From assembly GCA_020631855.1 (NCBI GenBank), contig JACKGU010000001.1, positions 231,601 through 295,600 on the forward strand: a DNA stretch of 64,000 bases, in the 5' to 3' direction. Made by a program: the position numbers and the translations under genes. Position 1 is the first letter of the stretch. Every line of letters starts with the position of its first letter. The notes under the pieces are model-generated. The model was not told the origin of the DNA and did not search any database. It saw only the letters and a program-made list of their open reading frames with translations. Positions 28,235 to 49,752 of this stretch are shown here, piece by piece. This DNA comes from Candidatus Nomurabacteria bacterium. GTDB taxonomy: Bacteria > Patescibacteriota > WWE3 > UBA101185 > UBA10185.

Positions 28235-28248
28235 TAATTCTTTTGTTT

Positions 28249-28293
28249 ATAATTTCGTTACTTAAAACTACTTTCGTATTGTTGAAGATTAGC
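28249..28293 (+). repeat. Degenerate 5' fragment of the ~119-bp repeat (ATAATTTCGTTACTTAAAACTACTTTCG...) 15 bp upstream of the trmD start codon
   Basis: The first about 28 nt are identical to copy A, then it diverges. It overlaps the stop of the KH-protein gene. Confidence 0.6.
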
Positions 28294-30622: not shown

Positions 30623-30775
30623 CTATTCCTTACCGCAAGAGTCACAAACTCTGTGAGGGAGTTTTTGAGCTTTACAATGCTCGCACTGTACGGTTTGTAC
30701 AACTTGTTGCTGCATCTTTTCGTCTCTTTTTCTTCGGACTCTTCCTTTACTATGTTTTCTTTTAGGTCTTGGCAT
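30623..30775 (-). CDS. rpmF: 50S ribosomal protein L32 (not in ORF track, below 60 aa)
   Basis: Manual translation gives MPRPKRKHSKGRVRRKRDEKMQQQVVQTVQCEHCKAQKLPHRVCDSCGKE, which is the L32 zinc-ribbon signature. Confidence 0.85.
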   Translation of the reverse strand: MPRPKRKHSKGRVRRKRDEKMQQQVVQTVQCEHCKAQKLPHRVCDSCGKE

Positions 30776-31000: not shown

Positions 31001-32674
31001 CTATGTGTTACGAACTGTATTAGGTAATAATAAGGCTTTAACTATTTTTTCCACTCTTTGAGCGGGATTTTCTTTTTTAGGTTCACCGGCTACTAATGCT
31101 ACATCTTCAATAGCATGGGGCTGCGATCGTGGATTGCTTATAAATAAACCCTCTATCAAATCTAAATCTAAGAAAGAAAGATCTTGTTGTTGTTCAGGAG
31201 TAGGATTATTTACATCTCGCATGTATGTACTGCCACCGTCTAAAGATACCGTACGCTTGTATTCCCAGCCAGTTCTATCTGGTTTATATTTGTGTCTCAT
31301 TGTAATTTCCACATCACCTTTAGATATAATCAGTGTATGAAAATCCCCCTCTTTTTCAGCGAGCTTTATTCTAACACCCTCTGTACTTACTGTAATAACT
31401 TGCACTACTCTTCTTTCTGATTTAATACCAGTATCATACCCAGCATTGGCAACGGTGGTATGAGAAAGAGTCGCTTCCACATAATCTGCTGTGTTTAGTT
31501 CTGGTATCCAACGAGCAGCAATATCTACGTTACACGCTTTTCCATCACAGCTGGCCCCATAAAGATGAGTCACCTCTGTATTTTGAGGTTGTTCACCTTG
31601 TTCACCTTGTTCCTCTAACTTTCTGGCAAAGAAAGGGAAACAAGGCTCATCCGGACCATTCCTGTCATGGCGAGTTGTCGTAGAAGCTACATCAAGAAGT
31701 GAGTCCTTGGCCGTTTTCTCGCACACGGCAAGTGCCGGAAATCTTGCCTTATCCTTAGGGGTAATTATACGAGAAATATTTGCTCCGGCGGCTACAAGCA
31801 GTCTATTTAACAGTGCGGTCTGTTCTTCATCCCTGTCTTTAAGTCCAGCGCTGTCAGACATTTTGATAAAACCTCGTACTAGAGAGTATATAGAAGGTAC
31901 GCCCAAATCCTGTAACTTAGCAATTCGTTCTATCGCATATTGCGGCAAAGTTTCTATTTCCCTTGTTAAATTATAATACAATCTTGCTGTCTCAGGGCCG
32001 CACCGCTTATAAATATCTATGATTGTCAAAATATTGTGTTCAGCTTTGAGCGGGCTTTCTGGATACTGAATTCTGCCAGCATCAAGGTCTGTTTTTGCAA
32101 GTACAAGCAGGGCCATAAGAGCCTCTGCGTGGGGTAGGGTTTCGAGCAAAGCAAGATCTCCATTGAGTTTCAAAATTTTGGGTAACCTTCTATTTAAAAC
32201 ATCGGGAAATGGCAGTTGCCGCAATAATTGAGCGACTCTCGTGTTAAAATTAGGACTCTGTTCGGCTAAAATTTCTCGCTCTCTACCTGTTTCGAGTTCG
32301 GCAAGCAGGTTCTCACGAGAACCAATATAGGATGTCCCGTCGCCCTGTTTTTTTAGTATTACTGTCTTGCCTTCCTCCGATCCATCCTTGACATTAAAAA
32401 TTATGGTAACCGCTCCGTGTTTTCCTGGTCCCCCCTTTTCTGTGCGAATAGTGAGGGAGCCTTGGTCTCCACTTAGCCCAAAGGTTTGTTCTACTTTATT
32501 AGCGTCTGTGGGTTCAGTAGAGATCATAAAAGGTTTTAATAAACTCATGTTCTCATTGTAACAAGAACAATTTATGCTGTAAACCTCTCTTGAAACTAAG
32601 TCTGTTGCGTAAGTGCCGTAAGACCATAGAACAAATTTGTAGTTAGCACCCTTGCTGCTGTAAGATAGAGACAC
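31001..32674 (-). CDS. Hypothetical protein, 557 aa, in a GC-rich islet; no recognisable domains
   Basis: Long uninterrupted ORF with GC visibly higher than neighbours. The start may be the internal Met (MSLLKPF). Confidence 0.55.
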   Translation of the reverse strand: MSLSYSSKGANYKFVLWSYGTYATDLVSREVYSINCSCYNENMSLLKPFMISTEPTDANKVEQTFGLSGDQGSLTIRTEKGGPGKHGAVTIIFNVKDGSEEGKTVILKKQGDGTSYIGSRENLLAELETGREREILAEQSPNFNTRVAQLLRQLPFPDVLNRRLPKILKLNGDLALLETLPHAEALMALLVLAKTDLDAGRIQYPESPLKAEHNILTIIDIYKRCGPETARLYYNLTREIETLPQYAIERIAKLQDLGVPSIYSLVRGFIKMSDSAGLKDRDEEQTALLNRLLVAAGANISRIITPKDKARFPALAVCEKTAKDSLLDVASTTTRHDRNGPDEPCFPFFARKLEEQGEQGEQPQNTEVTHLYGASCDGKACNVDIAARWIPELNTADYVEATLSHTTVANAGYDTGIKSERRVVQVITVSTEGVRIKLAEKEGDFHTLIISKGDVEITMRHKYKPDRTGWEYKRTVSLDGGSTYMRDVNNPTPEQQQDLSFLDLDLIEGLFISNPRSQPHAIEDVALVAGEPKKENPAQRVEKIVKALLLPNTVRNT

Positions 32675-32742
32675 CCCTCTCGTTAAATAAGGTCTTAGTT
32701 CACAACAGTGAGAAAAAATTTCAGATATAGCTTTATAGTATC

Positions 32743-33300
32743 TTATTTCCCAAAACCAATAATGCTTAAAAAACTCTCCCCGTATTTTCTGGATTGCAGA
32801 ATCTTTAGGCTTGTTCCTATAAGCTGTTCCTCCAAATTCAGGTCCTTGGAATGAGAAAAAGCTATCAAGCCCCCCTTTTCTAGTATTTCCGCTAAATTTT
32901 TTAATAAAAATTTATGTTTCAAATCGCTATAAAAAGGATCGCAGAAAATAACATTGTATTTTTTGTATATATTAGCAATGTATTTTATGCAATCGCTGTG
33001 AAATATTTGTGCTAGATCCTGAAGTCCGCATGTTGATAGATTTTCTTGAATTGTAGTAATTGCTCTTTTGTTATGATCTACAAAATCGCAATGTTTTGCC
33101 CCTCTGCTTAGCGCCTCAATTCCGGCACTACCTGAGCCCGCGAAAAGGTCTAAACAGTTTGCATTTACTATTTTCTCACCAATAATGTTGAAAAGGGCTT
33201 GTTTAAAAACATCCTTATGAACCCTTATTCCTTCGATGTCGGGTATTTTCAGTTTTCTATTTTTTGCAGTTCCTGACGTGACTCTAGTTGTAATATCCAT
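32743..33300 (-). CDS. rsmD: 16S rRNA (guanine966-N2)-methyltransferase RsmD
   Basis: DLFAGSGSAGIEALSRGA and DPFY motifs. Confidence 0.85.
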   Translation of the reverse strand: MDITTRVTSGTAKNRKLKIPDIEGIRVHKDVFKQALFNIIGEKIVNANCLDLFAGSGSAGIEALSRGAKHCDFVDHNKRAITTIQENLSTCGLQDLAQIFHSDCIKYIANIYKKYNVIFCDPFYSDLKHKFLLKNLAEILEKGGLIAFSHSKDLNLEEQLIGTSLKILQSRKYGESFLSIIGFGK

Positions 33301-33303
33301 GTG

Positions 33304-35322
33304 TTAATTAGATACAGCCATAGAGGCATGTTCGTCAAGTTTCTGTTTCAAATTAGGTAAGTCCTCCAGTTGGCCGTAAAGCTCTTCCGCCGCCTTTTTA
33401 GCTGTTCTAACGGCTTTCAGATCACTAAAATCGGCGTATTTAAAGTTTTTAAATCCATGTTGTTGGGTTCCGTAAATGTTTCCTTGACCTCTGTATTTCA
33501 TATCTATTTCTGCCAGTTTTAGCCCCGAGCTTGTGATTTCTAAATTTTTTAATCTTGTATAGGAATTTTTTGAATATCCCGACATGAACAAGAAGCAGAA
33601 TCCTTCTTTTGCTCCTCTTCCAACCCTTCCTCGTAGTTGATGCAATGAGGCCAGCCCATAACGTTCCGCACTTTCTATCACAATTATTGTAGCCTCGGGA
33701 ATATCGACTCCCACTTCAATCACCGGTGTCGAGATTAAAAACTTTATTTTACCTGTGCGAAAATTGTCTAAGGTTTGATTTTTCTCTTTTTCACTCATAC
33801 GCCCATGCAACAACCCAACGGCCTTGCCCTTTAGACTGCCTTGTTGAAGCCGCTGAAACTCCGTTTCAGCGGCCCTAATATTCTCAAAATCCTCATTTGT
33901 GGAAGATTCAATAAATGGGCAAACTATAAACGTAGGTTCGTTTCTCTTTCTAATCCATTCAAATACCTTATTTCTCTGAGACTCGGAGATTACTTTTGTT
34001 GTAATCTTTTTTTCTGTATTCGGTACAGTATCTAAAGTAGAAATTTCAAGATGTCCGTATATAGTGAGTGCTAAGGTTCGAGGTATGGGTGTTGCCGTCA
34101 TAGACAAAAGATGGGGTTTTATTTCATTTGTTCCCATGACTTTTGATCTTTGTTCGACTCCGAATCGGTGTTGTTCGTCAATAATTACAAGTCCCAAATT
34201 TTTGACCCCTTTTTTTAAGTGAAGTAATGCGTGAGTTCCAATTATTATGCTTGGTGTGCTTTCTTCGATAGGCTGTTTCTCGCTGCCCGTTATAAGCAGA
34301 ACTTTAATCCCCAAAGGTTCTAGAAATTTTTTAAATGTTGAATAGTGCTGTTGGGCTAAAATTCCTGTTGGCGCCATGTATATTGTGCTGTGCCCGTTTA
34401 GTAAAGTATTATATGCTGCTGCAACAGCAACAATGGTTTTACCTGAGCCAACGTCCCCCTCAAGGAGTCTGTTCATAGGTCGTTCCCTATCCGTGTCATT
34501 TAGAATTTCTTCTATAGCTTTTTCCTGGGAATTTGTTAATGAAAACCCAAGATTTTTTGTAAAGTTAGATACATCAAGTTTTTTATAATCAAGCCTGTAT
34601 GCTGAAAAGGCGCTTTTCCACGTATCCTTTGTCTTTTGAACTTTAAGCAGCTCTATAACCAACTCTCTAAATGCTAAACTCTTCTCTGCTTGGGAGATGT
34701 CTTGTGTACCTTCTGGCATGTGCAGGTGGCATAATGCGGTAGGCAGGTCTAGAAGATTGTATTCTGAAAGTAATTTTTCCGGCAAATATTCCCCTATAGC
34801 CCCTTCTTCTAAAAGTTTTGGTAAAATGTCGTTAATCCTAGACCTCAGCCACTTTGAAGTTAGGCCTGCTGTTTCAGGATAAATTGGTACAATCCTTGCA
34901 GTACTAACCCCTTGTTTATCGATTTCTTCAAATTGTGGAGAAGGCATAGATATTTTATTATTGAAGACTTGAACTTTCCCGCTAAAGTAATATTCATTTT
35001 CTAGTTTTATGCTTTTTGCAATATATTGTTGATTAAACCAAACAACCTCAACTTTTCCCGATGAGTCCCCTACTACGGCCTTCGTAAGACGTTTGCCGGT
35101 TTTGGTATAAATATTGTCTATTTTGTTTATTTTGGCCTTTATGGTCACATTTTTATCTGGTTCCAGTTCGGCAATATTGGTTATTTTTGAATAGTCTTCG
35201 TATCTAATCGGTCGGTGGTAAAGTAAATCTTCTATGGAGTATATACCGAGTTTTGCCAGCAAATCTTTGTATTTTGGGCCGATTTTTGCTATTGTAGCCA
35301 CATTAGAGCTTATTTTATGCAT
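33304..35322 (-). CDS. recG: ATP-dependent DNA helicase RecG
   Basis: Wedge domain, Walker A GDVGSGKT, DEQHRFG, TATPIPRTLAL. Confidence 0.9.
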   Translation of the reverse strand: MHKISSNVATIAKIGPKYKDLLAKLGIYSIEDLLYHRPIRYEDYSKITNIAELEPDKNVTIKAKINKIDNIYTKTGKRLTKAVVGDSSGKVEVVWFNQQYIAKSIKLENEYYFSGKVQVFNNKISMPSPQFEEIDKQGVSTARIVPIYPETAGLTSKWLRSRINDILPKLLEEGAIGEYLPEKLLSEYNLLDLPTALCHLHMPEGTQDISQAEKSLAFRELVIELLKVQKTKDTWKSAFSAYRLDYKKLDVSNFTKNLGFSLTNSQEKAIEEILNDTDRERPMNRLLEGDVGSGKTIVAVAAAYNTLLNGHSTIYMAPTGILAQQHYSTFKKFLEPLGIKVLLITGSEKQPIEESTPSIIIGTHALLHLKKGVKNLGLVIIDEQHRFGVEQRSKVMGTNEIKPHLLSMTATPIPRTLALTIYGHLEISTLDTVPNTEKKITTKVISESQRNKVFEWIRKRNEPTFIVCPFIESSTNEDFENIRAAETEFQRLQQGSLKGKAVGLLHGRMSEKEKNQTLDNFRTGKIKFLISTPVIEVGVDIPEATIIVIESAERYGLASLHQLRGRVGRGAKEGFCFLFMSGYSKNSYTRLKNLEITSSGLKLAEIDMKYRGQGNIYGTQQHGFKNFKYADFSDLKAVRTAKKAAEELYGQLEDLPNLKQKLDEHASMAVSN

Positions 35323-35351
35323 ATTATTATTTTATCGTATCATTTAATTTT

Positions 35352-35470
35352 ATAATTTCGTTAATTAAAACTACTCGCGTTAGCTAGTAGATGCAGTTTA
35401 CTCAACATGCGGGGCTTTGCAACTTAAAGAAATTACAGCAAACCGCCCGCGTAAGCTGGCGGTAGTTGAT
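35352..35470 (+). repeat. Copy E of the ~119-bp double-hairpin repeat, 30 bp upstream of the recG start
   Basis: ATAATTTCGTTAATTAAAACTACTCGCGTTAGCTAGTAG...CCGCCCGCGTAAGCTGGCGGTAGTTGAT. Both hairpins are intact, with compensatory substitutions relative to A and B. Confidence 0.85.
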
Positions 35471-35506
35471 TATTTTAATTAAATTGTACTGTGATTTTAG
35501 GATTTT

Positions 35507-36343
35507 ATGAATCTTGAACCTAGTTTCAGTCCCAAAGGGACGAGGGAAAGACACTACGAATTTAATGGCGCCGACGGTGACCTTTTTGGTTTTACAGTTG
35601 ACCACATTGAGCAAGTAAATCCTTCACGAGGTTACATGAGCGCTTTATCAAGAGCTGAGATCGGCAAAGGCTCTGCCTCCTTAACTATCGAGGTGGTTCA
35701 TCACGCAGGCTTTCCCCGCTCAAATCTTATTGATGCTCAAGGGGCAGATGAGAGAGGTCTAATCTCACTACCTTTTTCCTCGCTATTCTTTGCATTAAAG
35801 GTTTCTCGGCCCTTGCAGGCTGTTGAAATTGACTACCTAAATCAAAGTGCTCCTGGAGATACAGCAGAAATAATTAGTGCGCATCGAGCGTTCTTGTTAC
35901 AAGGAAATCTAGTTCCCCTCATCACGCCCGTCTCGGGAATTCATGCATTGGAAATAACTCGCAAAGACAATAAAACAGGATTCTACCCTCAACCTGGATC
36001 TGGGTTTCATGGATATTCTGCATACATTCCCACAAGAGCTTTTCAGGGCTATGTAGTGACAACTATAGACCCTGCTTTAATGCGTAGACTTTTTCATCCA
36101 GTTTATGAAAGCTCTCGCATTGTTGGAGCCGATACGATTTGCGGTTCTACATATGTAAGACCCATAAACATTATTAGGCCCGATCAATTGTATTTACTTG
36201 ACAGTCAAGCATTTTGGAATTTGTTGCCGGCGTTTCGTGATGGCGGGATATTATACGGTCGTGAGAAACCTAGGCAAAATATACCCCTAAATATTAGGGA
36301 ATTGACTTTTCCAGTTTGTGTTTTGCCCGATCTGAAGTTTTAA
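35507..36343 (+). CDS. Hypothetical protein (278 aa), GC-rich islet
   Basis: Long ORF, about 47% GC by eye, no recognisable motifs. Confidence 0.5.
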   Translation: MNLEPSFSPKGTRERHYEFNGADGDLFGFTVDHIEQVNPSRGYMSALSRAEIGKGSASLTIEVVHHAGFPRSNLIDAQGADERGLISLPFSSLFFALKVSRPLQAVEIDYLNQSAPGDTAEIISAHRAFLLQGNLVPLITPVSGIHALEITRKDNKTGFYPQPGSGFHGYSAYIPTRAFQGYVVTTIDPALMRRLFHPVYESSRIVGADTICGSTYVRPINIIRPDQLYLLDSQAFWNLLPAFRDGGILYGREKPRQNIPLNIRELTFPVCVLPDLKF

Positions 36344-36528
36344 TAGCTGCAGTACCTTTAAGATTAGTTTTTCGGTTATTGTTAGTACGGCTCTTGTAAT
36401 TATAAAATTATCAATTAATTCTATTTTCTTTCTTTTTTAATAAGATTTTGCCCATAAGAAATTTTGAGGGTTTGGGGTTTAGCTTTTTTCTCTTTCTTAT
36501 TATTCTTCTGTTATAATTCTAACGTTAT

Positions 36529-37104
36529 ATGGCAATTTTTGAAGGTGAAACTCCTTATACAAATAGCACCAGATTTGAGTTAATCGAGCAAGGTACAGGT
36601 GGTGTCAAAATTATAGTTTATATTGCTGGTAAAGCAGGGGTGGGGCTAGAAATAGAGGCTGAAATTTTGAGGTTTTATGGCCCCAGCCCAGCTGTTGCAA
36701 GAGGGGGCGATTTGTTTGTTTCCTCTGTAAGGACCACTACTGGTTTCGGGTTAGAAATTTTCTCACCTAAAGCTGTTTTACCTGCCACCACTGGTTCTTC
36801 CGGCCCTTTTCAATTGCGTCCAAAAATTCTGGAACTGCCTCTCTGGTTTACTCAAGATAAAGGTAAGGATACTGCTCGATCTAACAACCATTTCGATGTT
36901 ACTTATTTATCAATTTTAGCAACTCAACCTGAAGCAAGTCTTGTTGGGTATGACGAAAATCTTCGAAGATGGCGCTTTAATGATCCTAAAGTTAAAGTAA
37001 ACGTGGGTTTGTTTAATCAGATCATTTTACAACGCCAGCATGACGAGATATTTTATCGTGACGGTTTACCTCCCCGAAAATACATCTTGCAAAGGAATAT
37101 TTGA
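36529..37104 (+). CDS. Hypothetical protein (191 aa), GC-rich islet
   Basis: ORF co-oriented with the 35507 gene; no recognisable motifs. Confidence 0.45.
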   Translation: MAIFEGETPYTNSTRFELIEQGTGGVKIIVYIAGKAGVGLEIEAEILRFYGPSPAVARGGDLFVSSVRTTTGFGLEIFSPKAVLPATTGSSGPFQLRPKILELPLWFTQDKGKDTARSNNHFDVTYLSILATQPEASLVGYDENLRRWRFNDPKVKVNVGLFNQIILQRQHDEIFYRDGLPPRKYILQRNI

Positions 37105-37364
37105 GATTGCTTTAAATCACATAAGGCAATACACTCGTAGCAATAATACTCAAAGTGCAAAGAATAACAATAAACTTAACAAGATTTTTTTTGTTAAAGA
37201 TCCGCTTAAGTTTTTTGCTTCTATAAAACTTAAACTTTTTTTTATGTCCCGGTAATGATATTAGATCCATAACGCCCCTGAGCGTGGGTAGTTTTTTATT
37301 TTCTTTTAAGATTTTTTTAAACACTGCGCTATTCCTATAAATAAATTTTTTCGTAGTTTTATGA

Positions 37365-38564
37365 CTATTCCAGTCTTATAAAAGTACGTTTTCCAAATTT
37401 AATAATATCGCCTTTTATAAACTTATGCACTGAGTTGGGTTCTGTTACTTTGTTGCCATTCAGTTCAAGTCCTCCTTGAGATATTGTTCTTTTTATTTCT
37501 CCTGACGAGAATTTATTTCCAAGTTCTTTTCTTATAAAATCAAGAATGGTTTGACTTCCGGTGCTTGTGCTTTGAGTAAAAAGCTCTTCTGAGATTTCTT
37601 TATTTTGCACAGTTTCTTCAAAGACCCTTGCTGCGGTTTTTGCGTCTTCTGTGGAGTGGTAAAATGTGACTATTTCTTCGGCCAACATTTTTTTAAAGAT
37701 CATTGGGTTTGCACCGTTATTCATTTCTTTCTTCATTTTCTCTATGTCCTCTAAAGGTATCCTTGTAGAAAGTTCAAAGTAATCGAATATAACCTCGTCG
37801 ACAATTGACATCACCATTCCATACATGTCAATTGCGGATGCAGTAACTGGTATAAAATTCTTTAGGCTTTTTCCCATTGGTCGGCCATCGCTTCCGGTAA
37901 GCAATTTCATAACTACTGCGGATTGAGGCTTCAAATTAAACGCGGGCATTAATTTTCTTCCGGCTAAGAGGTTAAAAGTCTGGTCTGTACCTCCCATCTC
38001 TACATCTGCTTTTAGTACGACCGAATCGTACCCTTGCATTAAGGGATACAAGAATTCATCGAGCCCGATTGGTTTGTTTGCTTTGTAACGCAACATAAAA
38101 GTTTCTCTGTCTAGCATTTGGGAAACAGTAAACTGCTTTGCTAGGTTGATGATCTGATTAAAGTCTAAAGGTTTTAACCACTCAGAGTTATGTCTTATTT
38201 CTACCTGTTCGGGAATTACTGTTTTAAAAAATTGCTCTACATATGTTTTTTCATTTTCGGCTATGTCGTGTGTGTTAGTTTCATCTCGCATGTCTACTTT
38301 ATCGGAATGATCGCCTATTAAAGTTGTAAAGTCTCCTATTATCAAAGTTACTCTATGCCCAAGTTCCTGAAAATCTCTTATTTTTCTTTGTACAACCGCA
38401 TGCCCCAAATGAATAAGAGGGCCTGTAACATCAATTCCTAATTTTATGTGAAGTTGTTTTCCTGATAAGAGTTTTTCTTCCAATTCTTTGTAGGTGAATA
38501 TTTCGTGCACTCCCCTAGTTAGTATGTCTTTAATTTTCTCTTTGTCGGTACTGACTTTTGACAT
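37365..38564 (-). CDS. tyrS: Tyrosyl-tRNA synthetase with C-terminal S4 domain
   Basis: HIGH-type motif HLGHAV, KMSKS-like PMGKS, S4-like C-terminus. Confidence 0.8.
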   Translation of the reverse strand: MSKVSTDKEKIKDILTRGVHEIFTYKELEEKLLSGKQLHIKLGIDVTGPLIHLGHAVVQRKIRDFQELGHRVTLIIGDFTTLIGDHSDKVDMRDETNTHDIAENEKTYVEQFFKTVIPEQVEIRHNSEWLKPLDFNQIINLAKQFTVSQMLDRETFMLRYKANKPIGLDEFLYPLMQGYDSVVLKADVEMGGTDQTFNLLAGRKLMPAFNLKPQSAVVMKLLTGSDGRPMGKSLKNFIPVTASAIDMYGMVMSIVDEVIFDYFELSTRIPLEDIEKMKKEMNNGANPMIFKKMLAEEIVTFYHSTEDAKTAARVFEETVQNKEISEELFTQSTSTGSQTILDFIRKELGNKFSSGEIKRTISQGGLELNGNKVTEPNSVHKFIKGDIIKFGKRTFIRLE

Positions 38565-38665
38565 TGAGTAATTATAGCATTATGCAAAGATATTTCGCAT
38601 AACCAAATCTGTATCAAATACCTACAATTAAGGAGCTTTGTTCATAAATGTTATAATTACCTGAT

Positions 38666-41359
38666 ATGTTTAAGAACCTGTTTTTCCTATTTGGTGCCAA
38701 ACCTAAATATAGATCAATTCAAAGAAATAAGAAAAATCGATTTAAGTTTATACCGTTCGATAAAGCTTTTGGTAAATCCGGAGAAAAGGTAAAGATTGAT
38801 AAAAATAATGTATCGCCCAAGCTTCTTGTGGCTACGTATTTAGCAACCGGGGCGTTAATAGCTGTGATTTTAGGCATAGTCGTTCTAATTATTGTCTTTG
38901 CAACTTTTTCTAGAGATCTGCCCGACCCGAATAAGCTTCTTGAGAGAGATCGTGAGCTATCCACGAGACTTTATGATAGAAACGGTAAACCTTTGTTTGA
39001 GGTTTATGGAGAAAAAAATAGGCAATTAATTCAGGTTTCGGATGTTTCTCCTAATCTGGTTTATGCAACATTGGCTACGGAAGACGCCAACTTTTATTCA
39101 CACCGAGGCTTTTTTCTTAAAGGAATGTTAAGAGCACTTGTTAATATGGTTAAAGGTGAAGGTCTTCAAAGTGGCTCGACAATTACTCAGCAGGTAGCAA
39201 AAAATGCAGCCTTGTCGCAGGATCGCACCATAACCAGAAAGGTTAAAGAAATAATTTTAGCCTTACAGCTGGAAAATAAATACTCAAAGGAGCAAATTTT
39301 ACAAATGTATTTAAACGAAACTCCATATGGAGGGCAAAATTATGGTGTTTTGACTGCCGCAAAGGCTTATTTTAATAAACACCCACGTGACCTGACGTTG
39401 GCCGAAGCGGCATATATTGCAGGTTTACCCCAAAGCCCGACTAGCTATTCTTTTTACGGCCCGACTCCGGAAAAAGGTATAGCAAGAAAAAATTATGTTC
39501 TGTCCCTGCTTAAGGATTATGGTTGGCAGGGAGAGGATGGTAAAAGGCACTATATTACTGAGGAAGAGTATGAACGTGCAGCAAACGAAGAACTTTTATT
39601 CCAGAAGCCCGATATTCAATTTGAAGCACCTCATTTTGTCTTTTATACCAAAGATTATCTTTCTCAGTTATTTGGCCCGGACATGGTGGAACAAGGAGGA
39701 CTACAAGTCACAACGACACTCGATCTTGATCTGCAAAGGGAGGCAGAAAAGATAGTAAGAGAAGAAGTTGATAAATCAGCTTATCTTAATGTAGGGAACG
39801 GCGCTTTGGTAGCTGTTCAGCCCGGCACAGGGAACATTTTAGCTATGGTTGGTTCTAAAGACTATTCCGCTGATTCCGCTCCCGAAGGATGTACGCCAGG
39901 AATTGCAGGTGAAGATGGTTGTGTTTTTGACCCTAATGTTAATGTCACTACATCCTTAAGGCAGCCCGGTTCCTCCATTAAGCCTATTACCTACGCTACC
40001 ATGCTCGAGCAAGGTTACACAGCCGCTTATCCGTTTTTAGACGTAGAATCCAAATTTGCAGGCTCTGCTCCTGACAAACCTTATATTCCCAAAAACTATG
40101 ACGGAAAATATCGAGGGCCTATGTCTATGAGACGCTCTCTTGCTAATTCGCTCAATATCCCAGCAGTAAAAGCTCTGGAGATTGTTGGAATACAAAATAT
40201 GCTCAACACAGCAGAAGAGATGGGAATAACAACACTAACCAGGAAAAATGAATACGGCTTGTCGTTGGCTTTAGGCGCAGGAGAAACAAAGCTACTTGAA
40301 ATGACAAATGCTTTTGCGGTGTTTGCTAATAATGGTGAATACGCAACACCAACTCCAATTATTGAAGTCAAAAATGCTCGAGGTGAGGTTATTTACAAAG
40401 CTGTGCCTGCAAAACACAACGCTATTTCACCTGAGACAGCCTTTATTATAAGCGATATTCTTTCTGATGACGGTGCTCGATCTGACGTTTTTGGAACAGG
40501 AAGCTTATTAAACATTCCTGGTCATAAAGTTGCAGTAAAGACGGGTACAACTAATGATCTTCGCGATAACTATGCTGTGGGGTATACCCCAATAGTAGCA
40601 GTAGGAGTATGGGTTGGTAATAATAACAACGAAGCTATGAGTAATGTTGCTTCAGGTATAACCGGCGCCACCCCTATCTACCACCGCTTTATGGCCGCTT
40701 TCTTAGAAGGCAAGGAGGAGCAAAAGTTTGAGGCTCCATCAAATGTTGAGAAGGTAACTGTGGATTCTCTGACAGGCATGTTACCCTATGCTGATTTTTC
40801 ACAGCGCCCCGAGTGGTTTATTAAAGGAACAGAACCCACATCCCCAAGTGAGTGGTATCAGCGAATTGAAATTTGTAAACCGGACGGCTTGCTTGCGAGC
40901 CAGTCATGCAGAGAGGCTGATAAAACTTCTGTAGAAACTTTTATTGATATTCAAGCAGAGCTTGAAAAATGGCAAGTTTACGTAGACAAGTGGATTGGAG
41001 AAAACTTTTCGGGAGACTCCAAATACTTTCCTCCACGTACAGTTTCTTCTTTAAAGTTTGATGGCGGAGATGTGCAGAAAGACACTAATCCGGTTGTAAG
41101 TATCGCAAATTTTAAAAACGGATCTGATGCCCCTTTGGAGTTTAGATTAAAAGTCGAGGTTTCCTCCCCTAATGACATAGATTACGTAAAAATTTATTTA
41201 GATGGAAACGAAGTCACAAAGGATAAATCTGAGCCCTTTGGATATAATTTTACATTTACTTCCGCCGACGTTGGTAAGCATGAGTTTAAAGCTTCCGCGG
41301 TTGACGAGGACGGCCGCGAAGGCGACGTTAAGATAAGTTTAGAGATAGTGCCTTATTAA
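38666..41359 (+). CDS. Class A penicillin-binding protein (glycosyltransferase plus transpeptidase) with C-terminal extension
   Basis: GT51 motifs EDANFYSHRGF and GSTITQQVAKN. TP motifs SSIK and KTGTTND. N-terminal TM segment. Confidence 0.85.
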   Translation: MFKNLFFLFGAKPKYRSIQRNKKNRFKFIPFDKAFGKSGEKVKIDKNNVSPKLLVATYLATGALIAVILGIVVLIIVFATFSRDLPDPNKLLERDRELSTRLYDRNGKPLFEVYGEKNRQLIQVSDVSPNLVYATLATEDANFYSHRGFFLKGMLRALVNMVKGEGLQSGSTITQQVAKNAALSQDRTITRKVKEIILALQLENKYSKEQILQMYLNETPYGGQNYGVLTAAKAYFNKHPRDLTLAEAAYIAGLPQSPTSYSFYGPTPEKGIARKNYVLSLLKDYGWQGEDGKRHYITEEEYERAANEELLFQKPDIQFEAPHFVFYTKDYLSQLFGPDMVEQGGLQVTTTLDLDLQREAEKIVREEVDKSAYLNVGNGALVAVQPGTGNILAMVGSKDYSADSAPEGCTPGIAGEDGCVFDPNVNVTTSLRQPGSSIKPITYATMLEQGYTAAYPFLDVESKFAGSAPDKPYIPKNYDGKYRGPMSMRRSLANSLNIPAVKALEIVGIQNMLNTAEEMGITTLTRKNEYGLSLALGAGETKLLEMTNAFAVFANNGEYATPTPIIEVKNARGEVIYKAVPAKHNAISPETAFIISDILSDDGARSDVFGTGSLLNIPGHKVAVKTGTTNDLRDNYAVGYTPIVAVGVWVGNNNNEAMSNVASGITGATPIYHRFMAAFLEGKEEQKFEAPSNVEKVTVDSLTGMLPYADFSQRPEWFIKGTEPTSPSEWYQRIEICKPDGLLASQSCREADKTSVETFIDIQAELEKWQVYVDKWIGENFSGDSKYFPPRTVSSLKFDGGDVQKDTNPVVSIANFKNGSDAPLEFRLKVEVSSPNDIDYVKIYLDGNEVTKDKSEPFGYNFTFTSADVGKHEFKASAVDEDGREGDVKISLEIVPY

Positions 41360-41404
41360 GTAAATATTGCTAAGACAGGCTAGCTCGGATCTTTTTGTTA
41401 GTAT

Positions 41405-42376
41405 TTAGTTCGTATCCACCGCAGGTCTAAAAATAGGTTTTGGTCCTAACGTTCTTACTTGTAAATCTTCTTGGCCTATTGGAGATTGTAACGCTTTCGC
41501 AATGGCCTCTGATATAACATCTCCAACCGTTTCTTTGCCGTTTCTGCCGTCACTACCTGTGTCAGTTGTGTATGGTTTAGCCGGTCCGAAGATTTGCAAA
41601 ATGCGGTTTGCTGTTTTTCCCGCCGTATCCGCAATAGCAAATTGACGCCATGTATCACTTTCTCCATGTAGTAAAGTACCAATCTCCTCATTACCATCTA
41701 TGATCGCTAAGAGCTGAAGCAATGTGTCGAGTTCATTCCTTGCTATTACCCGAGTTTGAGGCTTTGCCAAGGAATCCTTTTCATCTTCTGGTAAAATTCC
41801 AAGTGAGAGTATTAGAAAAATTGCTTCCTCTTCCGTCATTTCTTTTTCCATCATTGTTGCTGCTTTATAAAAGTTAGCAACTCTACGTTTTATATCAGCA
41901 GGGTTTGCTATTACCCCACCCTCCATCGATCCTAACTGTAGCAAACCTTCGAGCACTCCGCTAGCTGTCTCTATAGCTATTAGCCTACTTTCATGAGCAC
42001 TTCTCGCCCCTTGTTGTCGGGTTGCCCTTAACCTTTCCTCCGCATTTTGAAACTCAAGAAATCCTGCAGAATTGAGGATTTCCAGAGCATCGACTGGGGA
42101 AAGTGATTCGGTGAAAGCACCCGAATGTCCTACTTTCTGGGCGTTATTAGTCTCTAGTTTCAGCGCCTTTCCGCAGGTATCGTACAACTGAAATAAAGTA
42201 GCTTTACGTTGATTTCGTTTACTCCAGTAATTAGGACTTCCTATCTTCTCTTCCCCCTCGATGTTCTCAGTTGTTACTGCGGCCAGATCATCACTTAGTC
42301 TATGTGCATCTTCCGCAAGCTGCTTCACGGTTTCCGTACCTGGTTCTGTTTGTAATTGCAAATGGGGTTTTCTCAT
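41405..42376 (-). CDS. Hypothetical protein (323 aa), GC-rich islet
   Basis: Long ORF, elevated GC, no recognisable motifs. Confidence 0.5.
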   Translation of the reverse strand: MRKPHLQLQTEPGTETVKQLAEDAHRLSDDLAAVTTENIEGEEKIGSPNYWSKRNQRKATLFQLYDTCGKALKLETNNAQKVGHSGAFTESLSPVDALEILNSAGFLEFQNAEERLRATRQQGARSAHESRLIAIETASGVLEGLLQLGSMEGGVIANPADIKRRVANFYKAATMMEKEMTEEEAIFLILSLGILPEDEKDSLAKPQTRVIARNELDTLLQLLAIIDGNEEIGTLLHGESDTWRQFAIADTAGKTANRILQIFGPAKPYTTDTGSDGRNGKETVGDVISEAIAKALQSPIGQEDLQVRTLGPKPIFRPAVDTN

Positions 42377-42464
42377 CCTTATTTCCTTTAAAATTATTAT
42401 TTATCCTGTAATTATACATTTTTTTTACACATTTTAGCAACTCCGAAAAGCCAACACTTGCAGC

Positions 42465-44537
42465 TTAATTAATGCCTATTAGAGGCAGGTCCCAGCTTCC
42501 TTCTTGGTCTTGATTTGTTAAGTTTTTTGTTCTTAAACCCTCGACTCTAGTGATTTCTTCTACAACCAAATTTTTAATACGTTGCAGCTCTTCAGCTTTT
42601 TGAGCGGTGCTATATATTCTTATGGTAACAGCTTTTGTTGCGGATTTTAAATCTACGCCATCTTGGTAGACGTCAAGCGCTGTTATTCGGCCAACTCCTG
42701 CTATCTTTTCAATATTTTTTACTACGGGCCCAAGAGATCTTTTCTCTTTACAAACTATGGTAATATCGAAATCCATCGTATGTGCGTTGTGCAGAGCTAA
42801 TCTCTTATTAGCTACGGCTAAGTTATCTTTAAGCGCTTGGGATAGCCTCTCGGTGTACAGGACGAAACTGTCCACATATAATTCCCCCACCTCGGTGTCT
42901 TTCACTAAGATCGTTGCTCTAGCAGGTTTGTTAGTTTCAGATCTTTCTTCTGTGTTTTGAGAGCTGGGGCTTTCTTTTAGCTCGTATTCTTTTTGATCTA
43001 TATTCAGGTTCAAAAAAAGCGAGGCAAGAATTTTTCTTACCCTCTTGTTCAAATCGAGCACTGATTCCCCGTCTCTTAAAGTTGTTAGAACTTGTAGTGT
43101 TTTAATTTCTTTGTAGTTCTCGTAAATTTTGGGATCCCCCTCTAAGGTATATGTTTTTCCTAGCTCAAAAATTTCAGGTTGTCTTAAATTTAGTTTTGCA
43201 TAGTGCGTTAAGATCGGTTTAAGAGTTTCTTTTATAGTATATCTTAGACCTGCTTTCTCTTCTGTTAGGGCGTTAACTAGTTTAACCTGCCTTTGGTTTT
43301 CAGGATCGGCAGGCACAAGTGGGTCGGTAGAGTGCTCGTGTAGTCCTATGCTGCATAATATGTCTCGTATCTTTTCTTCGAGTACATAACTTGTGGGTGT
43401 TATTTCTTTTGGAGGCGTTGTTGTCATTTTTGCCATCGGTATGTTCGAGAACCCGTAAATTCTTAGTATGTCAGAAACTATATCGTCCTCGACACAGACG
43501 TCTGTTCTAAAGTAAGGAACCTCGAGAACCAACGCCTCCTCCTCCTCTTTTAGTATTTTGTAATCAAGATTTGTTAGAATTTGTTTTATTTTGTCTTTCT
43601 CTATGAGCAACCCGCCTATTTTTAGGATTCGATCAAACCTCAACCGCATATTTTTAGGTAACCATCTTTCGCTGTCCGGGAAGTAATCTCCGTTTTCGTA
43701 TGCGCTCCCTCCTGCAATGTCCAAAATAAGTTTTGTTGCTCTGTCTATAGCAAGCTTATTGTTGTAAGGATGGAGGAATTTGTCGTATCTTTGAACTGTT
43801 TCGTTTATTATTTTTAGTTTACGTGAGTTTTTTCTTACGCTGGTTTGATCGTAGCTTCCGGAATCAAGTAAAATGTCGGTTGTACTTTGATCAATAGCAA
43901 CTGCCTCACCCCCCACTATCCCCCCGATAATAGTTGGCTTGTCGTTTGTGCTTAGTATAGTTATGTCTTCATCTAAAGTTATACTTTCTCCAAGAAGTGT
44001 AGTTATGCTCTCCCCCTTTATCGCTTTTCTAAAAGTTATTTCGCGTGTTTCCATTTTACTTAGATCGTGTGCGTGCAGGGGCTGCCCAAGTTCAACCATT
44101 ACATAATTTGTTATGTCCACTATGTTGTTTATAGGAACCATTCCGTACTCGATTAGTCTTTTTTTAAGCCACTCAGGTGATTCTTTTACTTTTACATTGT
44201 AGATTACCCTTGTATAAAAACGATTAACAAAACCTTTGTCTTTAACTGTAATTTTAACTTTTTCTTTCTCGGGTAACATTGCAAGTTCTTGTGTGTGCAT
44301 TTCCGGCATCTTTAGAGAAACATTTTCAAATGCAGCCAGATCACGTGCGCATCCGATAATACCAAGCCAATCTGCTCTGTCCATCCTATGTTCCAGATCT
44401 AAAATTTCGTTTCCAAATTCTGATTTTTCTATTGGTTTGTCCAAAAGCAGCCCCAAAAAAGTAAATGAGCTAGCTAGCTCAAAGGCCGTCTTGTTTATAG
44501 CTACATATTGTTTTAGCCACTCTAAAGGTATTTTCAT
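42465..44537 (-). CDS. pheT: Phenylalanyl-tRNA synthetase beta subunit (short form lacking the N-terminal OB-fold tRNA-binding domain)
   Basis: B1 start MKIPLEWLKQYV runs directly into the RADWLGIIGCARD region. B3/4 and B5 domains and a C-terminal FDX-ACB-like domain are present. Confidence 0.8.
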   Translation of the reverse strand: MKIPLEWLKQYVAINKTAFELASSFTFLGLLLDKPIEKSEFGNEILDLEHRMDRADWLGIIGCARDLAAFENVSLKMPEMHTQELAMLPEKEKVKITVKDKGFVNRFYTRVIYNVKVKESPEWLKKRLIEYGMVPINNIVDITNYVMVELGQPLHAHDLSKMETREITFRKAIKGESITTLLGESITLDEDITILSTNDKPTIIGGIVGGEAVAIDQSTTDILLDSGSYDQTSVRKNSRKLKIINETVQRYDKFLHPYNNKLAIDRATKLILDIAGGSAYENGDYFPDSERWLPKNMRLRFDRILKIGGLLIEKDKIKQILTNLDYKILKEEEEALVLEVPYFRTDVCVEDDIVSDILRIYGFSNIPMAKMTTTPPKEITPTSYVLEEKIRDILCSIGLHEHSTDPLVPADPENQRQVKLVNALTEEKAGLRYTIKETLKPILTHYAKLNLRQPEIFELGKTYTLEGDPKIYENYKEIKTLQVLTTLRDGESVLDLNKRVRKILASLFLNLNIDQKEYELKESPSSQNTEERSETNKPARATILVKDTEVGELYVDSFVLYTERLSQALKDNLAVANKRLALHNAHTMDFDITIVCKEKRSLGPVVKNIEKIAGVGRITALDVYQDGVDLKSATKAVTIRIYSTAQKAEELQRIKNLVVEEITRVEGLRTKNLTNQDQEGSWDLPLIGIN

Positions 44538-45586
44538 AGGTATGCCAGCTTGCCTCCATATAAAGTACGCAAATCGCTAACGCCAAATTTTTGCATTACC
44601 AGTCTATCTAATCCCATTCCAAAAGCGAAGCCTGTATAAATTTCAGGGTCTATTCCACACATTTTTAGTGTGTTATAGTGAATCATCCCTGAACCTAAAG
44701 CCTCGATCCACCCACGATATTTACAGACATCGCAACCTTCCCCACCACAAAACTTACATTGCATATCTACTCCCACCCCCGGCGAAACCTCGGGGTAATA
44801 TTTGTACCTGAACCTAACCTTTGTGTCTTCACCGTAGAGGTATTTATGAGCCTGCTCCAGCGTACTCATTAGATGTTGTATAGTGATTCCCTTGTCGACC
44901 ACAAAACCTTGATATTGGTTAAAGTACGCTCCATTTGTCGAACTTAGGGTTTCGTTTCGGAAACATTTCCCCGGAACAACTACTCTAATAGGAGGTTCGT
45001 AGTTTGTTAAAATTCTTGCTTCCACAGACGAGGTGTGTGTTCTTAAGACTATGTCCATTTCATCTCCGAGCTGTTGTATAAAAAGGGTGTCTTGCAAATC
45101 TGTGGCAGGGTGGCCTTCGGGTAAATTAAGCTTTCTAAAATTGAACAGTGCAGTTTCTATTTCAGGCCCCTCGGCTACTGAGAATCCGCTATACCTAAAA
45201 AATTCATTTAGCTGTCGGATGACCTGAGTTGTAGGGTGCAAAAAGCCTGCATTAGTAGCTTTTTCAGGCAATGTTAAATCAAGCAAAGGGTCGTTAAGGC
45301 TTTCCTCTGCGAGTAAATTCTTTTTATCATTTATTTTGTTTTTCTGTTCTTCTATAAGAGTATTTATTTTCGGTCCATATAGCTTTTTTTCTTCAGAAGA
45401 TAGAGAAGGGATTTTTTTAACTAACATTGTAGTCAGCCCCGCTGACTTTGATAGATATTTAAGGTAGACTTCGTTAATTTTTGCCTCTGAGGTTGCAGTT
45501 TCCAAATCAAGCTCAAATTGTTTTTGTATTTCTGTTATGTTTTGCTGCATCTTTACTATAGTATGACAGAAAGGCTTATCTGGCAA
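44534..45586 (-). CDS. pheS: Phenylalanyl-tRNA synthetase alpha subunit
   Basis: Class II motifs (FRNE...), C-terminal GWIEALGSGMIH. 4-bp overlap with pheT. Confidence 0.85.
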   Translation of the reverse strand: MPDKPFCHTIVKMQQNITEIQKQFELDLETATSEAKINEVYLKYLSKSAGLTTMLVKKIPSLSSEEKKLYGPKINTLIEEQKNKINDKKNLLAEESLNDPLLDLTLPEKATNAGFLHPTTQVIRQLNEFFRYSGFSVAEGPEIETALFNFRKLNLPEGHPATDLQDTLFIQQLGDEMDIVLRTHTSSVEARILTNYEPPIRVVVPGKCFRNETLSSTNGAYFNQYQGFVVDKGITIQHLMSTLEQAHKYLYGEDTKVRFRYKYYPEVSPGVGVDMQCKFCGGEGCDVCKYRGWIEALGSGMIHYNTLKMCGIDPEIYTGFAFGMGLDRLVMQKFGVSDLRTLYGGKLAYL

Positions 45587-46170
45587 TATTCACATAAGGT
45601 CTTCTTAGATTAATTTCAATTGTTTAATTTTTATTATGATTGGCCTTTTGTCGGGTAAAATTAGCAAACATAGTGAATCCTCTACCATTAAGCTAAAATA
45701 TAGGTGAAATAAATATTATGGTTAGTACCTTGCGCAGAGAGAATTTAATGCCTCAGAGACTGATGGTGGCATAAGTTTTCATTACGAATCGATAGAGCTA
45801 TTCTGTAATGGATTAAGCCTAGATGCAAGCGAACCTCTTCCTGTACCTAGCCCGTGTGCTGGAATACACGCGTGTCTAGATGTTGCAGTAAATGGTTCTG
45901 TTTCAGTGACTTCGGTATGCGAAAGGAGCTGCTCCTTTTATATTCGGGGGGGGGTGGTTCTCCCCGGTTATGAAGCAAAGCTCTGAGCAAGGGCAGTTAA
46001 AAAGAACATTGTGTTTATCGGAATAAGGTTTTTTGGTTCTAGTTACACCTATAGTTATAAAGACGCTGGGGGATCAGAAGGTTATAGATACGATAAAGGG
46101 TAGTTTTTTGATGCTGATATAGCTCTCGCGCAAAATACTCAAGATCTTTATAGAGATAGAAATAGGAGAC

Positions 46171-46200
46171 GGGCTTTAGGTCGCGAAGCCCTATTTATTT
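46171..46200 (+). terminator. Candidate intrinsic terminator (GGGCTT-TAGGTCGCG-AAGCCC followed by TATTTATTT) inside the long pheS/PP2C intergenic region
   Basis: 6-bp GC stem plus a T-rich tail. No annotated plus-strand gene lies upstream of it. Confidence 0.3.
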
Positions 46201-46311
46201 GAGGAAATAATAAGTAAAAACACTAGATTTCTGAAATTTGATGCTTGCTTCCGCCTCTTTTTTATTGGAGAATAAAGATTATGTATTTCTTTGTGATTAA
46301 ATATCAAGAAA

Positions 46312-47286
46312 ATGATTAAGAGGGTGGGTCGCCAAGGTGAGCCCGTGGAGCGACAAGCTAATGAGGCGCTAAAAATTCTAGGTATTACGCGCCTAGTTGA
46401 GCCAAAAGATCCGCGAGTGCCCTCGGGTGATGCTGTTGTCGTGTCTAAGCGAATAGGGGCCTTCTGTGTCATCGACGGAGTTGGCGGAAGCGTAAATGGC
46501 CCGGAAGTTAAAGGTGACAGTCGGGCTGCAGGTATAGTAGCACGCGCAGTAGAGAAAAGAATTGAAGATGTTTCCCGTCCTATTGATAGTACAAAGCTCG
46601 CCGTTGAATTTCTGCTAGGTCTTCAAAGTGATGCTAAGTCTGAGTTAGAAGCTGTGGGCAGATACGAACGTCATTCTGCAGAAAAATATATTGGCGCTAC
46701 CCTAACCGCAGTTCTAGTCGGTAAAGTCAAAATTGCTGTGTTAAATGTAGGAGACTGTCGTGCAGTATACTTTCCAAGGAAAGGCAAAACTTACGAGCCA
46801 CCAAAGCATCTAACTCTTGATGATACACGTTTAGTTCAGATTTTGGCTGCGCGAGAGGGCGCAGAAAGGGAGTTGTTGTTAAAGCAGCAAAAAGCTATGG
46901 CAGCTATGGAAGACCCCTCATTGTATACGATTCCAGGAAATACCCTACCCATTGGCATGGATACTTTCTTGCGAACGACGGCCGAAGTTACTAATATGGT
47001 GTCGTCGTTCGCAAGCACTGGGTCTGTAGAAGGGAATGTGGAGATATACGATAGGAGCGATTTGGGGCCAGGTTTATTGCTCCTTATGAGCGATGGGACT
47101 CATGAGGTCTGTTCGGACCCTGCTCTGCTGAGGGTCCTTAATGGATTAAAGCCTCGCCAGAATCCTGCAGAAGCAGTAAGAGACCTAGTTATAGCAGAAA
47201 GGAATCGTTTAGGTCAAGGTCGTTGTAGATACAAGATCGACGATGCCAGTAATATATGTGTGACGCTAGGACAGCCCAAGTTGTGA
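46312..47286 (+). CDS. PP2C/PPM-family Ser/Thr protein phosphatase (apparently catalytic)
   Basis: VIDGVGGSVNG, GATLTAVLV...VLNVGDCRAVYF, LLLLMSDGTHEV and DDASNICVTL match the PPM metal-binding motifs. About 52% GC. Confidence 0.65.
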   Translation: MIKRVGRQGEPVERQANEALKILGITRLVEPKDPRVPSGDAVVVSKRIGAFCVIDGVGGSVNGPEVKGDSRAAGIVARAVEKRIEDVSRPIDSTKLAVEFLLGLQSDAKSELEAVGRYERHSAEKYIGATLTAVLVGKVKIAVLNVGDCRAVYFPRKGKTYEPPKHLTLDDTRLVQILAAREGAERELLLKQQKAMAAMEDPSLYTIPGNTLPIGMDTFLRTTAEVTNMVSSFASTGSVEGNVEIYDRSDLGPGLLLLMSDGTHEVCSDPALLRVLNGLKPRQNPAEAVRDLVIAERNRLGQGRCRYKIDDASNICVTLGQPKL

Positions 47287-47525
47287 ATGTCATGTTTGCA
47301 TAGTTAAAAGGTCTCTTATATAACTTTATACTGCCAAATATCTTCCATGGGCGGCAACCGTAGTAAAAGTCCCAAGGCAATAAATGATGATCTTAGATAC
47401 AACTGTGCGTTTGAATCTTTCGTGCGTTCCTTCATTCTTTATTACCCATCCTGTTTTTTTTGACGAACATAAAGTTCTATGGTAACTTTTTGTTAATATT
47501 TTTTTGTTACCAATAAATTACAGAT

Positions 47526-48365
47526 ATGCCTCACGAACAAACTGATACAGAGCATCCAGAAATGGGAGAATTTCGTATAAAACATTTTAATGATCAAGAA
47601 ATTCTGGATACTGTCTGTGTTGAGGGTGTGTGCAGCGCCCTTAAGGGTCCCGGCACTGCAGTTGAGCAGTTTGCTCTACCCGCCGAGGCAGTGGGGTTAG
47701 TATTGGTACATGCTCGTAGTACACACGGTCATGGCCCAAGAGATATGGAAGCTGATCCTACAACTGCGGCTGCGCGCCAAGCTTCAGAAATTTTTAAAGA
47801 GCATCTTGTACAGCACTTAGCAAGGCGGCCGCAGTATGGTAATGATTACGATGCACTTTTAGCTTCTTACCAAGCTATTGAACCTGCTTTATTACCTCGG
47901 GGTGATAATCTTGCAATTTCGGTAGCCTGTTTGTTAGTGCGGCAAGAAGGCGTGGCATTTTCTAATCTTGGAGATACCCGTGTGTACATGGTTAACCCAA
48001 AAACCGGCACAGCGCGTTCTCTAACTTTAGATACTCCTGCCACGGCGCATCGAAGAGAATACGATAAAGCACAAGCTTTTAGAGATCAAGATGGGGCACG
48101 AATTCTAGTTGATGGGCCGAGAAATCCACGATCTGGCTTTGTGGGTAATAGTAATTTTCCTCCAGCCATTGAAGTTAGTAACCGAGGCTTTCTCGGACTT
48201 AATGAAGCATGGTTAGTAGTCACTACCCGGGAAATTAATAGTTGTTTAACTGCGCTCGATCTTGCTCAATTAAGTGGTGCACTCAATCAACCTGTTCTTT
48301 TCCAAAGGGACGTATTGAATAGGGTTCAAAAAGGTGCTGTGGCTGTTATTGCTTTAGGACACTAA
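47526..48365 (+). CDS. Divergent PP2C-like protein with degenerate metal-binding motifs (possible pseudophosphatase)
   Basis: Keeps AISVACLLV...FSNLGDTRVYMV (GDSR-like). The DGxGG, SDG and DN-T motifs are replaced (LVHARSTHGHG, TTREI, GAVAVIAL). Confidence 0.5.
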   Translation: MPHEQTDTEHPEMGEFRIKHFNDQEILDTVCVEGVCSALKGPGTAVEQFALPAEAVGLVLVHARSTHGHGPRDMEADPTTAAARQASEIFKEHLVQHLARRPQYGNDYDALLASYQAIEPALLPRGDNLAISVACLLVRQEGVAFSNLGDTRVYMVNPKTGTARSLTLDTPATAHRREYDKAQAFRDQDGARILVDGPRNPRSGFVGNSNFPPAIEVSNRGFLGLNEAWLVVTTREINSCLTALDLAQLSGALNQPVLFQRDVLNRVQKGAVAVIALGH

Positions 48366-49672: not shown

Positions 49673-49752
49673 TCGTTAAACGAACCAAAATTACCATAAC
49701 AATGGGTGTTTGGTCAAATAATTCCTTGTTAGTTAGGGTTGGTTTTGGGAGA

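Follow-up and report, generated by a model that had tools for sequence, protein, structure and literature searches.

Introduction

How do genes without recognisable relatives come to stand between housekeeping genes whose order is shared among related bacteria? The question is raised by a stretch of 64,000 nucleotides from a Candidatus Nomurabacteria bacterium (assembly GCA_020631855.1, contig JACKGU010000001.1, positions 231,601–295,600, forward strand), here called the window and numbered from its first nucleotide. With a G + C content (GC) of 39.4%, the window comprises a type IV pilus cluster, a housekeeping gene string and an operon for ribosomal proteins. Between positions 31001 and 48365 the housekeeping string is interrupted by four blocks, or islets, holding six open reading frames (ORFs): I1 (block 1), I2a and I2b (block 2), I3 (block 3), I4a and I4b (block 4). 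A sequence-only reading of the same DNA had described the blocks as GC-rich islets of horizontally acquired or fast-evolving genes, possibly of host-interaction or defence function. In the present analysis the blocks are real insertions. They are interpreted, with a little more confidence than doubt, as cytoplasmic accessory genes of foreign ancestry that have long been resident, are largely ameliorated and lie at insertion-tolerant junctions.

Insertions into a conserved gene order

The order thrS-infC-rpmI-rplT-pheS-pheT-pbp-tyrS-recG-rsmD-rpmF-nusB is common to about 20 related loci of WWE3-type Patescibacteria, with mostly tight junctions, and continues in these loci beyond nusB as acpP-rnc-trmD. 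thrS lies directly upstream of infC in every related locus extending that far. Four junctions are wider in the window than is typical of relatives: rplT-pheS (2881 bp versus 35–175 bp), pheT-pbp (1105 bp versus 7–774 bp), tyrS-recG (2042 bp versus 114–744 bp) and rsmD-nusB (2264 bp versus 222–991 bp). The four blocks are insertions that interrupt the conserved order. Their flanks are identified by Pfam as NusB, RsmD, RecG, TyrS, class A penicillin-binding protein (PBP), PheT, PheS, L20 and IF3; the block coordinates and gene neighbours given in the sequence-only reading agree with the ORF calls and with these assignments.

None of the six proteins has a tblastn match at E ≤ 1 across 104 related loci or a phmmer match among 907 ORFs of relatives. 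Lineage-specific genes within conserved synteny, as originally described, are therefore confirmed: the genes are absent from all related loci, and are not core and syntenic across the lineage. The blocks are missing at the same site in relatives, the closest of which, by a TyrS probe of public genomes, are metagenome-assembled genomes (MAGs) of Patescibacteria, many of them bearing the label candidate division WWE3, with TyrS identities of about 70% at most. No sister species is found in genome or metagenome collections, the best TyrS match of the metagenome scan being 68–76%.

The same junctions in relatives hold other genes: pyruvate kinase, a molybdopterin oxidoreductase, DUF2298, lipoproteins and further Pfam-less proteins. 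The rplT-pheS junction of two related loci (L004 and L045) carries unrelated membrane proteins of 703 and 663 aa on the opposite strand. The rsmD-nusB junction spans 2.2–3.7 kb in L004, L019 and L034, and among the junction cargo of L034 are soluble Pfam-less orphans of 558, 487 and 404 aa. Unrelated cargo at the same junctions in different genomes indicates that these junctions are recurrent sites of gene gain. No paralogy was detected among the six islet proteins, nor any remote similarity between them and the orphan genes at the same junctions of relatives. Remnants of the relatives' junction genes in the window are limited to the expected rpsP and KH-domain genes and a small ORF at 37112–37324.

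Coding capacity and homology of the islet genes

Five of the six islet ORFs (278–557 codons) are longer than any stop-free run (maximum 268 codons) in 100 random sequences of 64 kb with the composition of block 4. I2b (191 codons) is marginal by length, 0.21 such runs being expected per 64 kb. GC at the first, second and third codon positions (GC1, GC2, GC3) follows the coding pattern GC1 > GC2 > GC3 in all six. Shine-Dalgarno-like sequences precede I2a and I3. I2b has a TATAAT box like those of tyrS and pbp, placed 11 nt before its ATG versus 7–9 nt in the latter.

Large protein-database searches, by exhaustive HMMER or by protein clusters, covered I1, I2a and I3. I1 retrieved only itself and a fragment from 1.84 billion representatives in the exhaustive HMMER search. 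I2a and I3 each retrieved their own cluster only among 5.8 billion protein clusters. By these searches the three genes are ORFans, with no homologue detected outside their own species. I2b belongs to a cluster of two members at 90% identity. I1, I2a, I2b and I3 have no match in Pfam, NCBIfam or PDB, and I1, I2a and I2b none in PHROG or PADLOC. The earlier statement that the block proteins lack recognisable homology stands for these four and falls for I4a, which matches Pfam PP2C_2 (31 bits versus a cut-off of 24). The four (191–557 aa, predicted soluble) are candidates for new folds.

Composition

Housekeeping genes of 33–38% GC had been set by eye against blocks of 45–52%, a contrast that was overstated. 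Measured GC is 41.6, 40.3, 43.6 and 45.0% for blocks 1–4 versus a mean of 39.2% for same-size segments of the window, of which 7.8%, 20%, 3.2% and 0%, respectively, are at least as GC-rich. The highest 500-bp GC within any block is 49.2%, and neighbouring housekeeping genes have 34–41.5%. On total GC, block 4 is the only clear outlier and block 3 a marginal one.

As a group the six islet genes are GC-richer than the 61 other genes (0.437 versus 0.388, Mann-Whitney p = 1.5e-4). The excess is found in GC1 (0.557 versus 0.464) and GC2 (0.423 versus 0.369) and is absent from GC3 (0.330 versus 0.332, p = 0.78). Being confined to GC1 and GC2, it reflects amino-acid make-up, without foreign codon usage. 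Arg (+2.2 points), Pro (+1.8) and Ala (+1.6) are raised in the islet proteins; Lys (−3.0 points), Ser (−1.6) and Ile (−1.4) are lowered. Individual GC and GC3 values are 0.416 and 0.323 (I1), 0.432 and 0.344 (I2a), and 0.405 and 0.297 (I2b). By a synonymous-choice likelihood score five islet genes lie within the background range, I3 marginally so (z = −2.0). I4a (z = −4.1) is the most compositionally deviant gene of the window, with the highest GC (0.477) and a GC3 of 0.394. Of the compositional deviation supposed by the sequence-only reading, the higher GC of the six genes as a group is retained; GC3 is native, and synonymous usage clearly deviates only in I4a.

The ratio of Arg to Lys (R/K) is 1.0–3.3 in the islet proteins versus 0.57 in the background (I2a, 2.7). 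CGN codons make up 66 of 128 arginine codons in the islets (52%) versus 184 of 718 elsewhere (26%; Fisher p = 1.4e-8), with an excess in all six genes. Among 114 unique ORFs of relatives, the mean deviation of GC1 is −0.022 and that of total GC +0.004. An islet-like pattern occurs in 6 of the 114, most of these with raised GC3 too.

Population variants

The same species is present in several independent assemblies (NCBI, ENA, JGI, Logan) at an identity of at least 99.6%, and at least 99.9% for contigs longer than 2.5 kb. Many independent assemblies, made from various samples and by various pipelines, show the identical block arrangement. Across about 18 kb only a few variants separate these assemblies from the window; several fall within islets. 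A frameshift (+AT at 42090) splits I3 in one NCBI MAG and in five contigs, each from a different sample. I4a has a nonsense allele, Q283* (at 47158), in one contig, and a 282-aa product on two contigs; different assemblies carry the missense changes L273P, G56R (inside the DGVGG motif) and R150H (inside GDCR). Housekeeping genes of the same span show only two single-contig missense changes, besides three mismatches at the extreme tip of one contig, which are probably assembly errors. The I3 frameshift and I4a nonsense alleles, occurring in populations about 99.9% identical, imply that I3 and I4a are dispensable in nature.

Mobility, defence and secretion

No tRNA is present in the window, and no Pfam integrase or transposase among the islet ORFs. 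Repeats around each block are short and at chance level, and none bracket a block. PADLOC gives no match at E ≤ 1 for any of the six proteins. The sole PHROG match under E = 0.1 is a family of unknown function for I4a (E = 7e-4). Scans of viral contigs with I4a, I2b and I4b and plasmid tblastn with I4a and I4b are empty. A hydropathy scan reveals no signal peptide, lipobox or membrane segment in the six proteins, whose N-termini are polar; one borderline 19-residue segment each lies within I1 and I4a. The products are predicted to be soluble cytoplasmic proteins. The host-interaction or defence functions proposed by the sequence-only reading find no support in these results.

PP2C resemblance of I4a and I4b

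Both genes of block 4 had been called PP2C-like. I4a passes the threshold of Pfam PP2C_2 (PF13672) with 31.0 bits over residues 50–162, and matches NCBIfam Stp1 at E = 8.7e-8 (32 bits, far under the equivalog cut-off of 230 bits); a single-sequence search of PDB gives no match. The motifs recognised by eye stand in the expected order: D40, D55-G56 (DGVGG), GDCR, D261-G262 (SDG) and D310/D311 (DD-x-SN). The Asp residues among them may be those that bind metal in motifs I, II, VIII and XI. I4a is predicted to be a divergent PP2C-type Ser/Thr phosphatase. It resembles bacterial PP2C/PPM Ser/Thr phosphatases (PF13672, Stp1/IreP) in its above-threshold match to the N-terminal half of the domain and in its motif order as read by eye, and differs in that the match is very divergent.

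For I4b the designation holds only around one motif. No Pfam match is found at E ≤ 0.1; the NCBIfam Stp1 match (E = 0.22, 11 bits) lies below the profile threshold, and Stp1-type PDB chains match at E of about 0.7 over residues 128–159 only. Alignment with I4a by hhalign covers 40 columns at 33% identity (E = 0.047). By eye a GDTR motif (GDxR type) is present and the Asp-containing motifs are absent, so that, unlike bacterial PP2C/PPM enzymes, I4b keeps only the GDTR strand-turn motif. NCBI names the product a protein phosphatase 2C family protein. I4b is possibly, and at most, a degenerate, non-catalytic PP2C-like partner. No kinase, FHA or STAS partner is seen in the window.

Origin of the blocks

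In the favoured history the blocks would be small accessory-gene insertions confined to a single species, or to a genus not yet sampled, and taken up long ago from a source whose proteins were GC-richer or Arg-richer. Synonymous sites would then have ameliorated almost completely, with third codon positions reaching host equilibrium, and slow-changing relics would be left in codon positions 1 and 2, the Arg/Lys ratio and the preference for CGN over AGR arginine codons. The junctions would act as insertion-tolerant sites between transcription units and not as targets of a specific mobile element. I4a and I4b would most likely form a small regulatory dephosphorylation module. Native GC3 excludes a recent transfer from a compositionally distinct donor; an R/K of at least 1 together with the doubled CGN share points to an old rather than a recent event. 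Of the horizontally acquired islands put forward by the sequence-only reading, recent transfer is accordingly set aside, since GC3 is native and mobile-element hallmarks are lacking, and an old foreign ancestry is hinted at.

Several points weigh against this history. Its main weakness is that foreign ancestry is argued from composition, since neither donor nor homologue came to light for four proteins. A composition kept by selection should leave recognisable homologues, and I1, I2a and I3 have none. With the nearest relatives at about 70% TyrS identity, the genes could be core within an unsampled genus, and it is possible that they came from a Patescibacteria genome of similar GC, with which the composition is compatible. 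CGN usage is 30% in non-ribosomal background genes versus 18% in the ribosomal block, so low expression could also raise it. The large database searches extend to I1, I2a and I3. The catalytic motifs of I4a and I4b are judged by eye, and population variants are drawn from assemblies, not from read-level counts. Of the single-sequence AlphaFold2 models, that of I3 is all-alpha at low confidence (predicted local distance difference test score, pLDDT, 47), and that of I4b is unusable (pLDDT 34.3).

The principal rival, rather unlikely, holds that the genes are native, fast-evolving or recently arisen in the lineage without any transfer, their composition being that of a protein class combined with low expression. 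It agrees with native GC3 and mostly native synonymous usage, with the lack of mobile-element hallmarks, and with the failure to find a donor for I1, I2a and I3 among billions of proteins. The soluble orphans of L034, also with raised GC and native GC3, fit it as well, as does the fact that every population variant seen in an islet gene alters or disrupts the protein, which is consistent with weak constraint. However, weakly constrained proteins under AT-biased pressure should gain Lys, Ile and Asn; the islet proteins gained Arg, Ala and Pro, beyond the level of conserved genes. Nor does uniqueness imply GC1-richness, as the negative mean GC1 deviation of the relatives' unique ORFs shows, and the CGN excess extends to six of six genes.

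It is improbable that the islets are recently acquired, whether as cargo of a mobile element or, as the sequence-only reading suggested, with a role in defence or host interaction. Absence from all relatives, the deviant composition of I4a (GC, GC3 and codon score), the repeat element abutting one block and the different cargo at the same junctions of related genomes could all be read in this sense. Against it stand a group GC3 equal to that of the host, the lack of an integrase, tRNA or bracketing direct repeats, and the occurrence of the repeat at only one of four blocks. PADLOC is empty, PHROG yields the single I4a family of unknown function, no viral-contig or plasmid relative and no signal peptide or membrane segment is found, and every assembly of the species carries all blocks that fall within its coverage.

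That the blocks are not genes at all, being chance ORFs, decayed pseudogenes or assembly artefacts, is highly improbable: the marginal length of I2b, the disrupted alleles of I3 and I4a and a probable misjoin nearby (49747–49833) are outweighed by five ORFs longer than any random run, the codon-position pattern of all six, identical sequence in many independent assemblies and the match of I4a to a curated Pfam family.

A bolder version of foreign ancestry, quite unlikely as it stands, would make the six genes one cohort from a single GC-richer source, such as the host of this episymbiont or a mobile element not yet sampled, and would have dispersed them over four junctions in a span of 17 kb. 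The codon-position disequilibrium shared by all six, rare among the unique genes of relatives, makes such a history conceivable. If true, the blocks would comprise a lineage-specific cytoplasmic signalling set of a PP2C phosphatase, a dead PP2C-like partner and four new-fold proteins, which might be substrates or regulators of the phosphatase.

Coordinates and other features of the locus

Coordinates are given in Table 1. The I1 start in public gene calls is M50, which yields 508 aa (31001–32527). Block 2 is bounded by recG and by the small ORF adjoining tyrS, which is probably a conserved small protein.

Table 1. Islet genes and associated features of the 64-kb window.
Feature	Position	Strand	Description
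I1	31001–32674	(−)	557-aa ORF, GTG start; between rpmF and rsmD, on the strand of both neighbours
I2a	35507–36343	(+)	278-aa ORF, divergent from recG; AGGA ribosome-binding site upstream
I2b	36529–37104	(+)	191-aa ORF; TATAAT box 11 nt before ATG
I3	41405–42376	(−)	323-aa ORF, 88 bp downstream of pheT, convergent with pbp
I4a	46312–47286	(+)	324-aa ORF between pheS and rplT; predicted divergent PP2C-family (PPM) protein
I4b	47526–48365	(+)	279-aa ORF, 3' of I4a; faint PP2C resemblance
rpmF	30623–30775	(−)	Flank of I1
Small ORF	37112–37324	(−)	70 aa, just downstream of tyrS; relative L008 has a homologue at this position (E = 4e-6)
pheS-I4a spacer	45587–46311		725 bp, non-coding, between divergent starts; no ORF longer than 47 aa
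117-nt intergenic repeat	2655–2782	(+)	Copy
117-nt intergenic repeat	7510–7626	(+)	Copy
117-nt intergenic repeat	7627–7754	(+)	Copy
117-nt intergenic repeat	27415–27498	(+)	Copy
117-nt intergenic repeat	28246–28289	(+)	Partial 5' copy
117-nt intergenic repeat	35343–35470	(+)	Copy

The pheS-I4a spacer contains no structured RNA or leader by Rfam (best E 0.6) and folding (z −0.7 and −0.95). It must carry the promoter for pheST, now severed from rplT by the insertion. Within it, the G-run at about 45946–45955 is one G longer in L001, L002, L051 and L052, and L003 has T>G at position 45955; a contingency-type tract and an artefact of sequencing are both conceivable.

TATAAT boxes occur at pbp (38640–38665), tyrS (38565–38590) and I2b (36503–36528), and a TATAGT variant at pheS (45551–45575). 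These boxes end 5–11 nt before the ATG, without a Shine-Dalgarno sequence. Their abutment on the start codon suggests leaderless or near-leaderless mRNAs in this organism. In scans for sigma-70 promoters and for terminators, the number of sites does not rise above that of shuffled sequence.

A copy of the 117-nt repeat (119 bp in the sequence-only reading) ends at 35470, 37 bp before I2a, as had been noted. All copies have the same orientation, regardless of that of neighbouring genes. The repeat contains a TATAAT-like box, and three hairpins are predicted in it, of which two bear a GCGTAAGC-type loop; covariation in the hairpins is thin, only four copies being full. Five occurrences of the core TGCRTAAGCYGGYGGT compare with 0.11 expected, and none of the 104 related loci contains an exact match to it. 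As a mediator of the insertions the repeat is rejected, since it adjoins only one of the four blocks, that of I2a.

At 49747–49833 a 40-nt poly-G arm stands opposite a poly-C arm, and other assemblies of the species all cease to align at 49760. The window lacks thrS and runs past 49760 into two unrelated genes (X201, Y289); in L050, as in every relative, thrS immediately precedes infC. The contig was probably misjoined here, at a genuine GC-rich hairpin that follows thrS, rather than truly rearranged. Just beyond it, 49868–50473 (−) encodes a protein of 201 aa that is unique to this genome and starts with a membrane anchor or signal sequence; GC (0.436) and GC3 (0.416) of the gene are both raised.

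In related loci, the closest relative has three paralogous lipoprotein genes between recG and rsmD (L004, 13556–16615), a gap of 3 bp in the window. Their GC3 of 0.38–0.46 versus a locus GC of 0.366 is a more classical transfer signature than that of the window's blocks. pheS and pheT lie on the opposite strand in L044 (4281–6149) and L048 (4281–6161) and share only 25–35% identity with those of the window. In these lineages a PheRS of another type appears to have taken the place of the original one.

Comparison with known systems and significance

The amelioration model for horizontally transferred genes reportedly goes back to Lawrence and Ochman in 1997, and figures in PMC12455944. The islet genes resemble ameliorated transferred genes, and show what the model predicts for old acquisitions, in that GC1 and GC2 fit a GC-richer genome, GC3 is host-like and the two-step CGN-versus-AGR arginine states lag. 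They differ in that no donor lineage can be named. Like the ORFans of integration hotspots or plasticity zones, the blocks are short variable cargo flanked by core genes, unrelated between genomes, mostly unannotated and dispensable. Unlike those, they are without integrases, tRNAs or repeats, hold one or two genes each and have native third positions; island predictors based on composition would probably miss them. Escherichia coli ORFans are described as short and AT-rich (PMC3514957), whereas the islet genes are long and GC-richer than the core.

A GC-rich islet judged by eye can arise entirely from amino-acid composition. Patescibacteria commonly carry genomic islands and transferred genes, and amelioration masks old transfers (PMC12455944). 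The phenomenon is an expected and ordinary one for the group and opens no new question. Its value is that of a small, clean example, in which the rplT-pheS link is split inside the string thrS-infC-rpmI-rplT-pheST: the reduced genomes of Patescibacteria still gain and shed genes at very old operon junctions.

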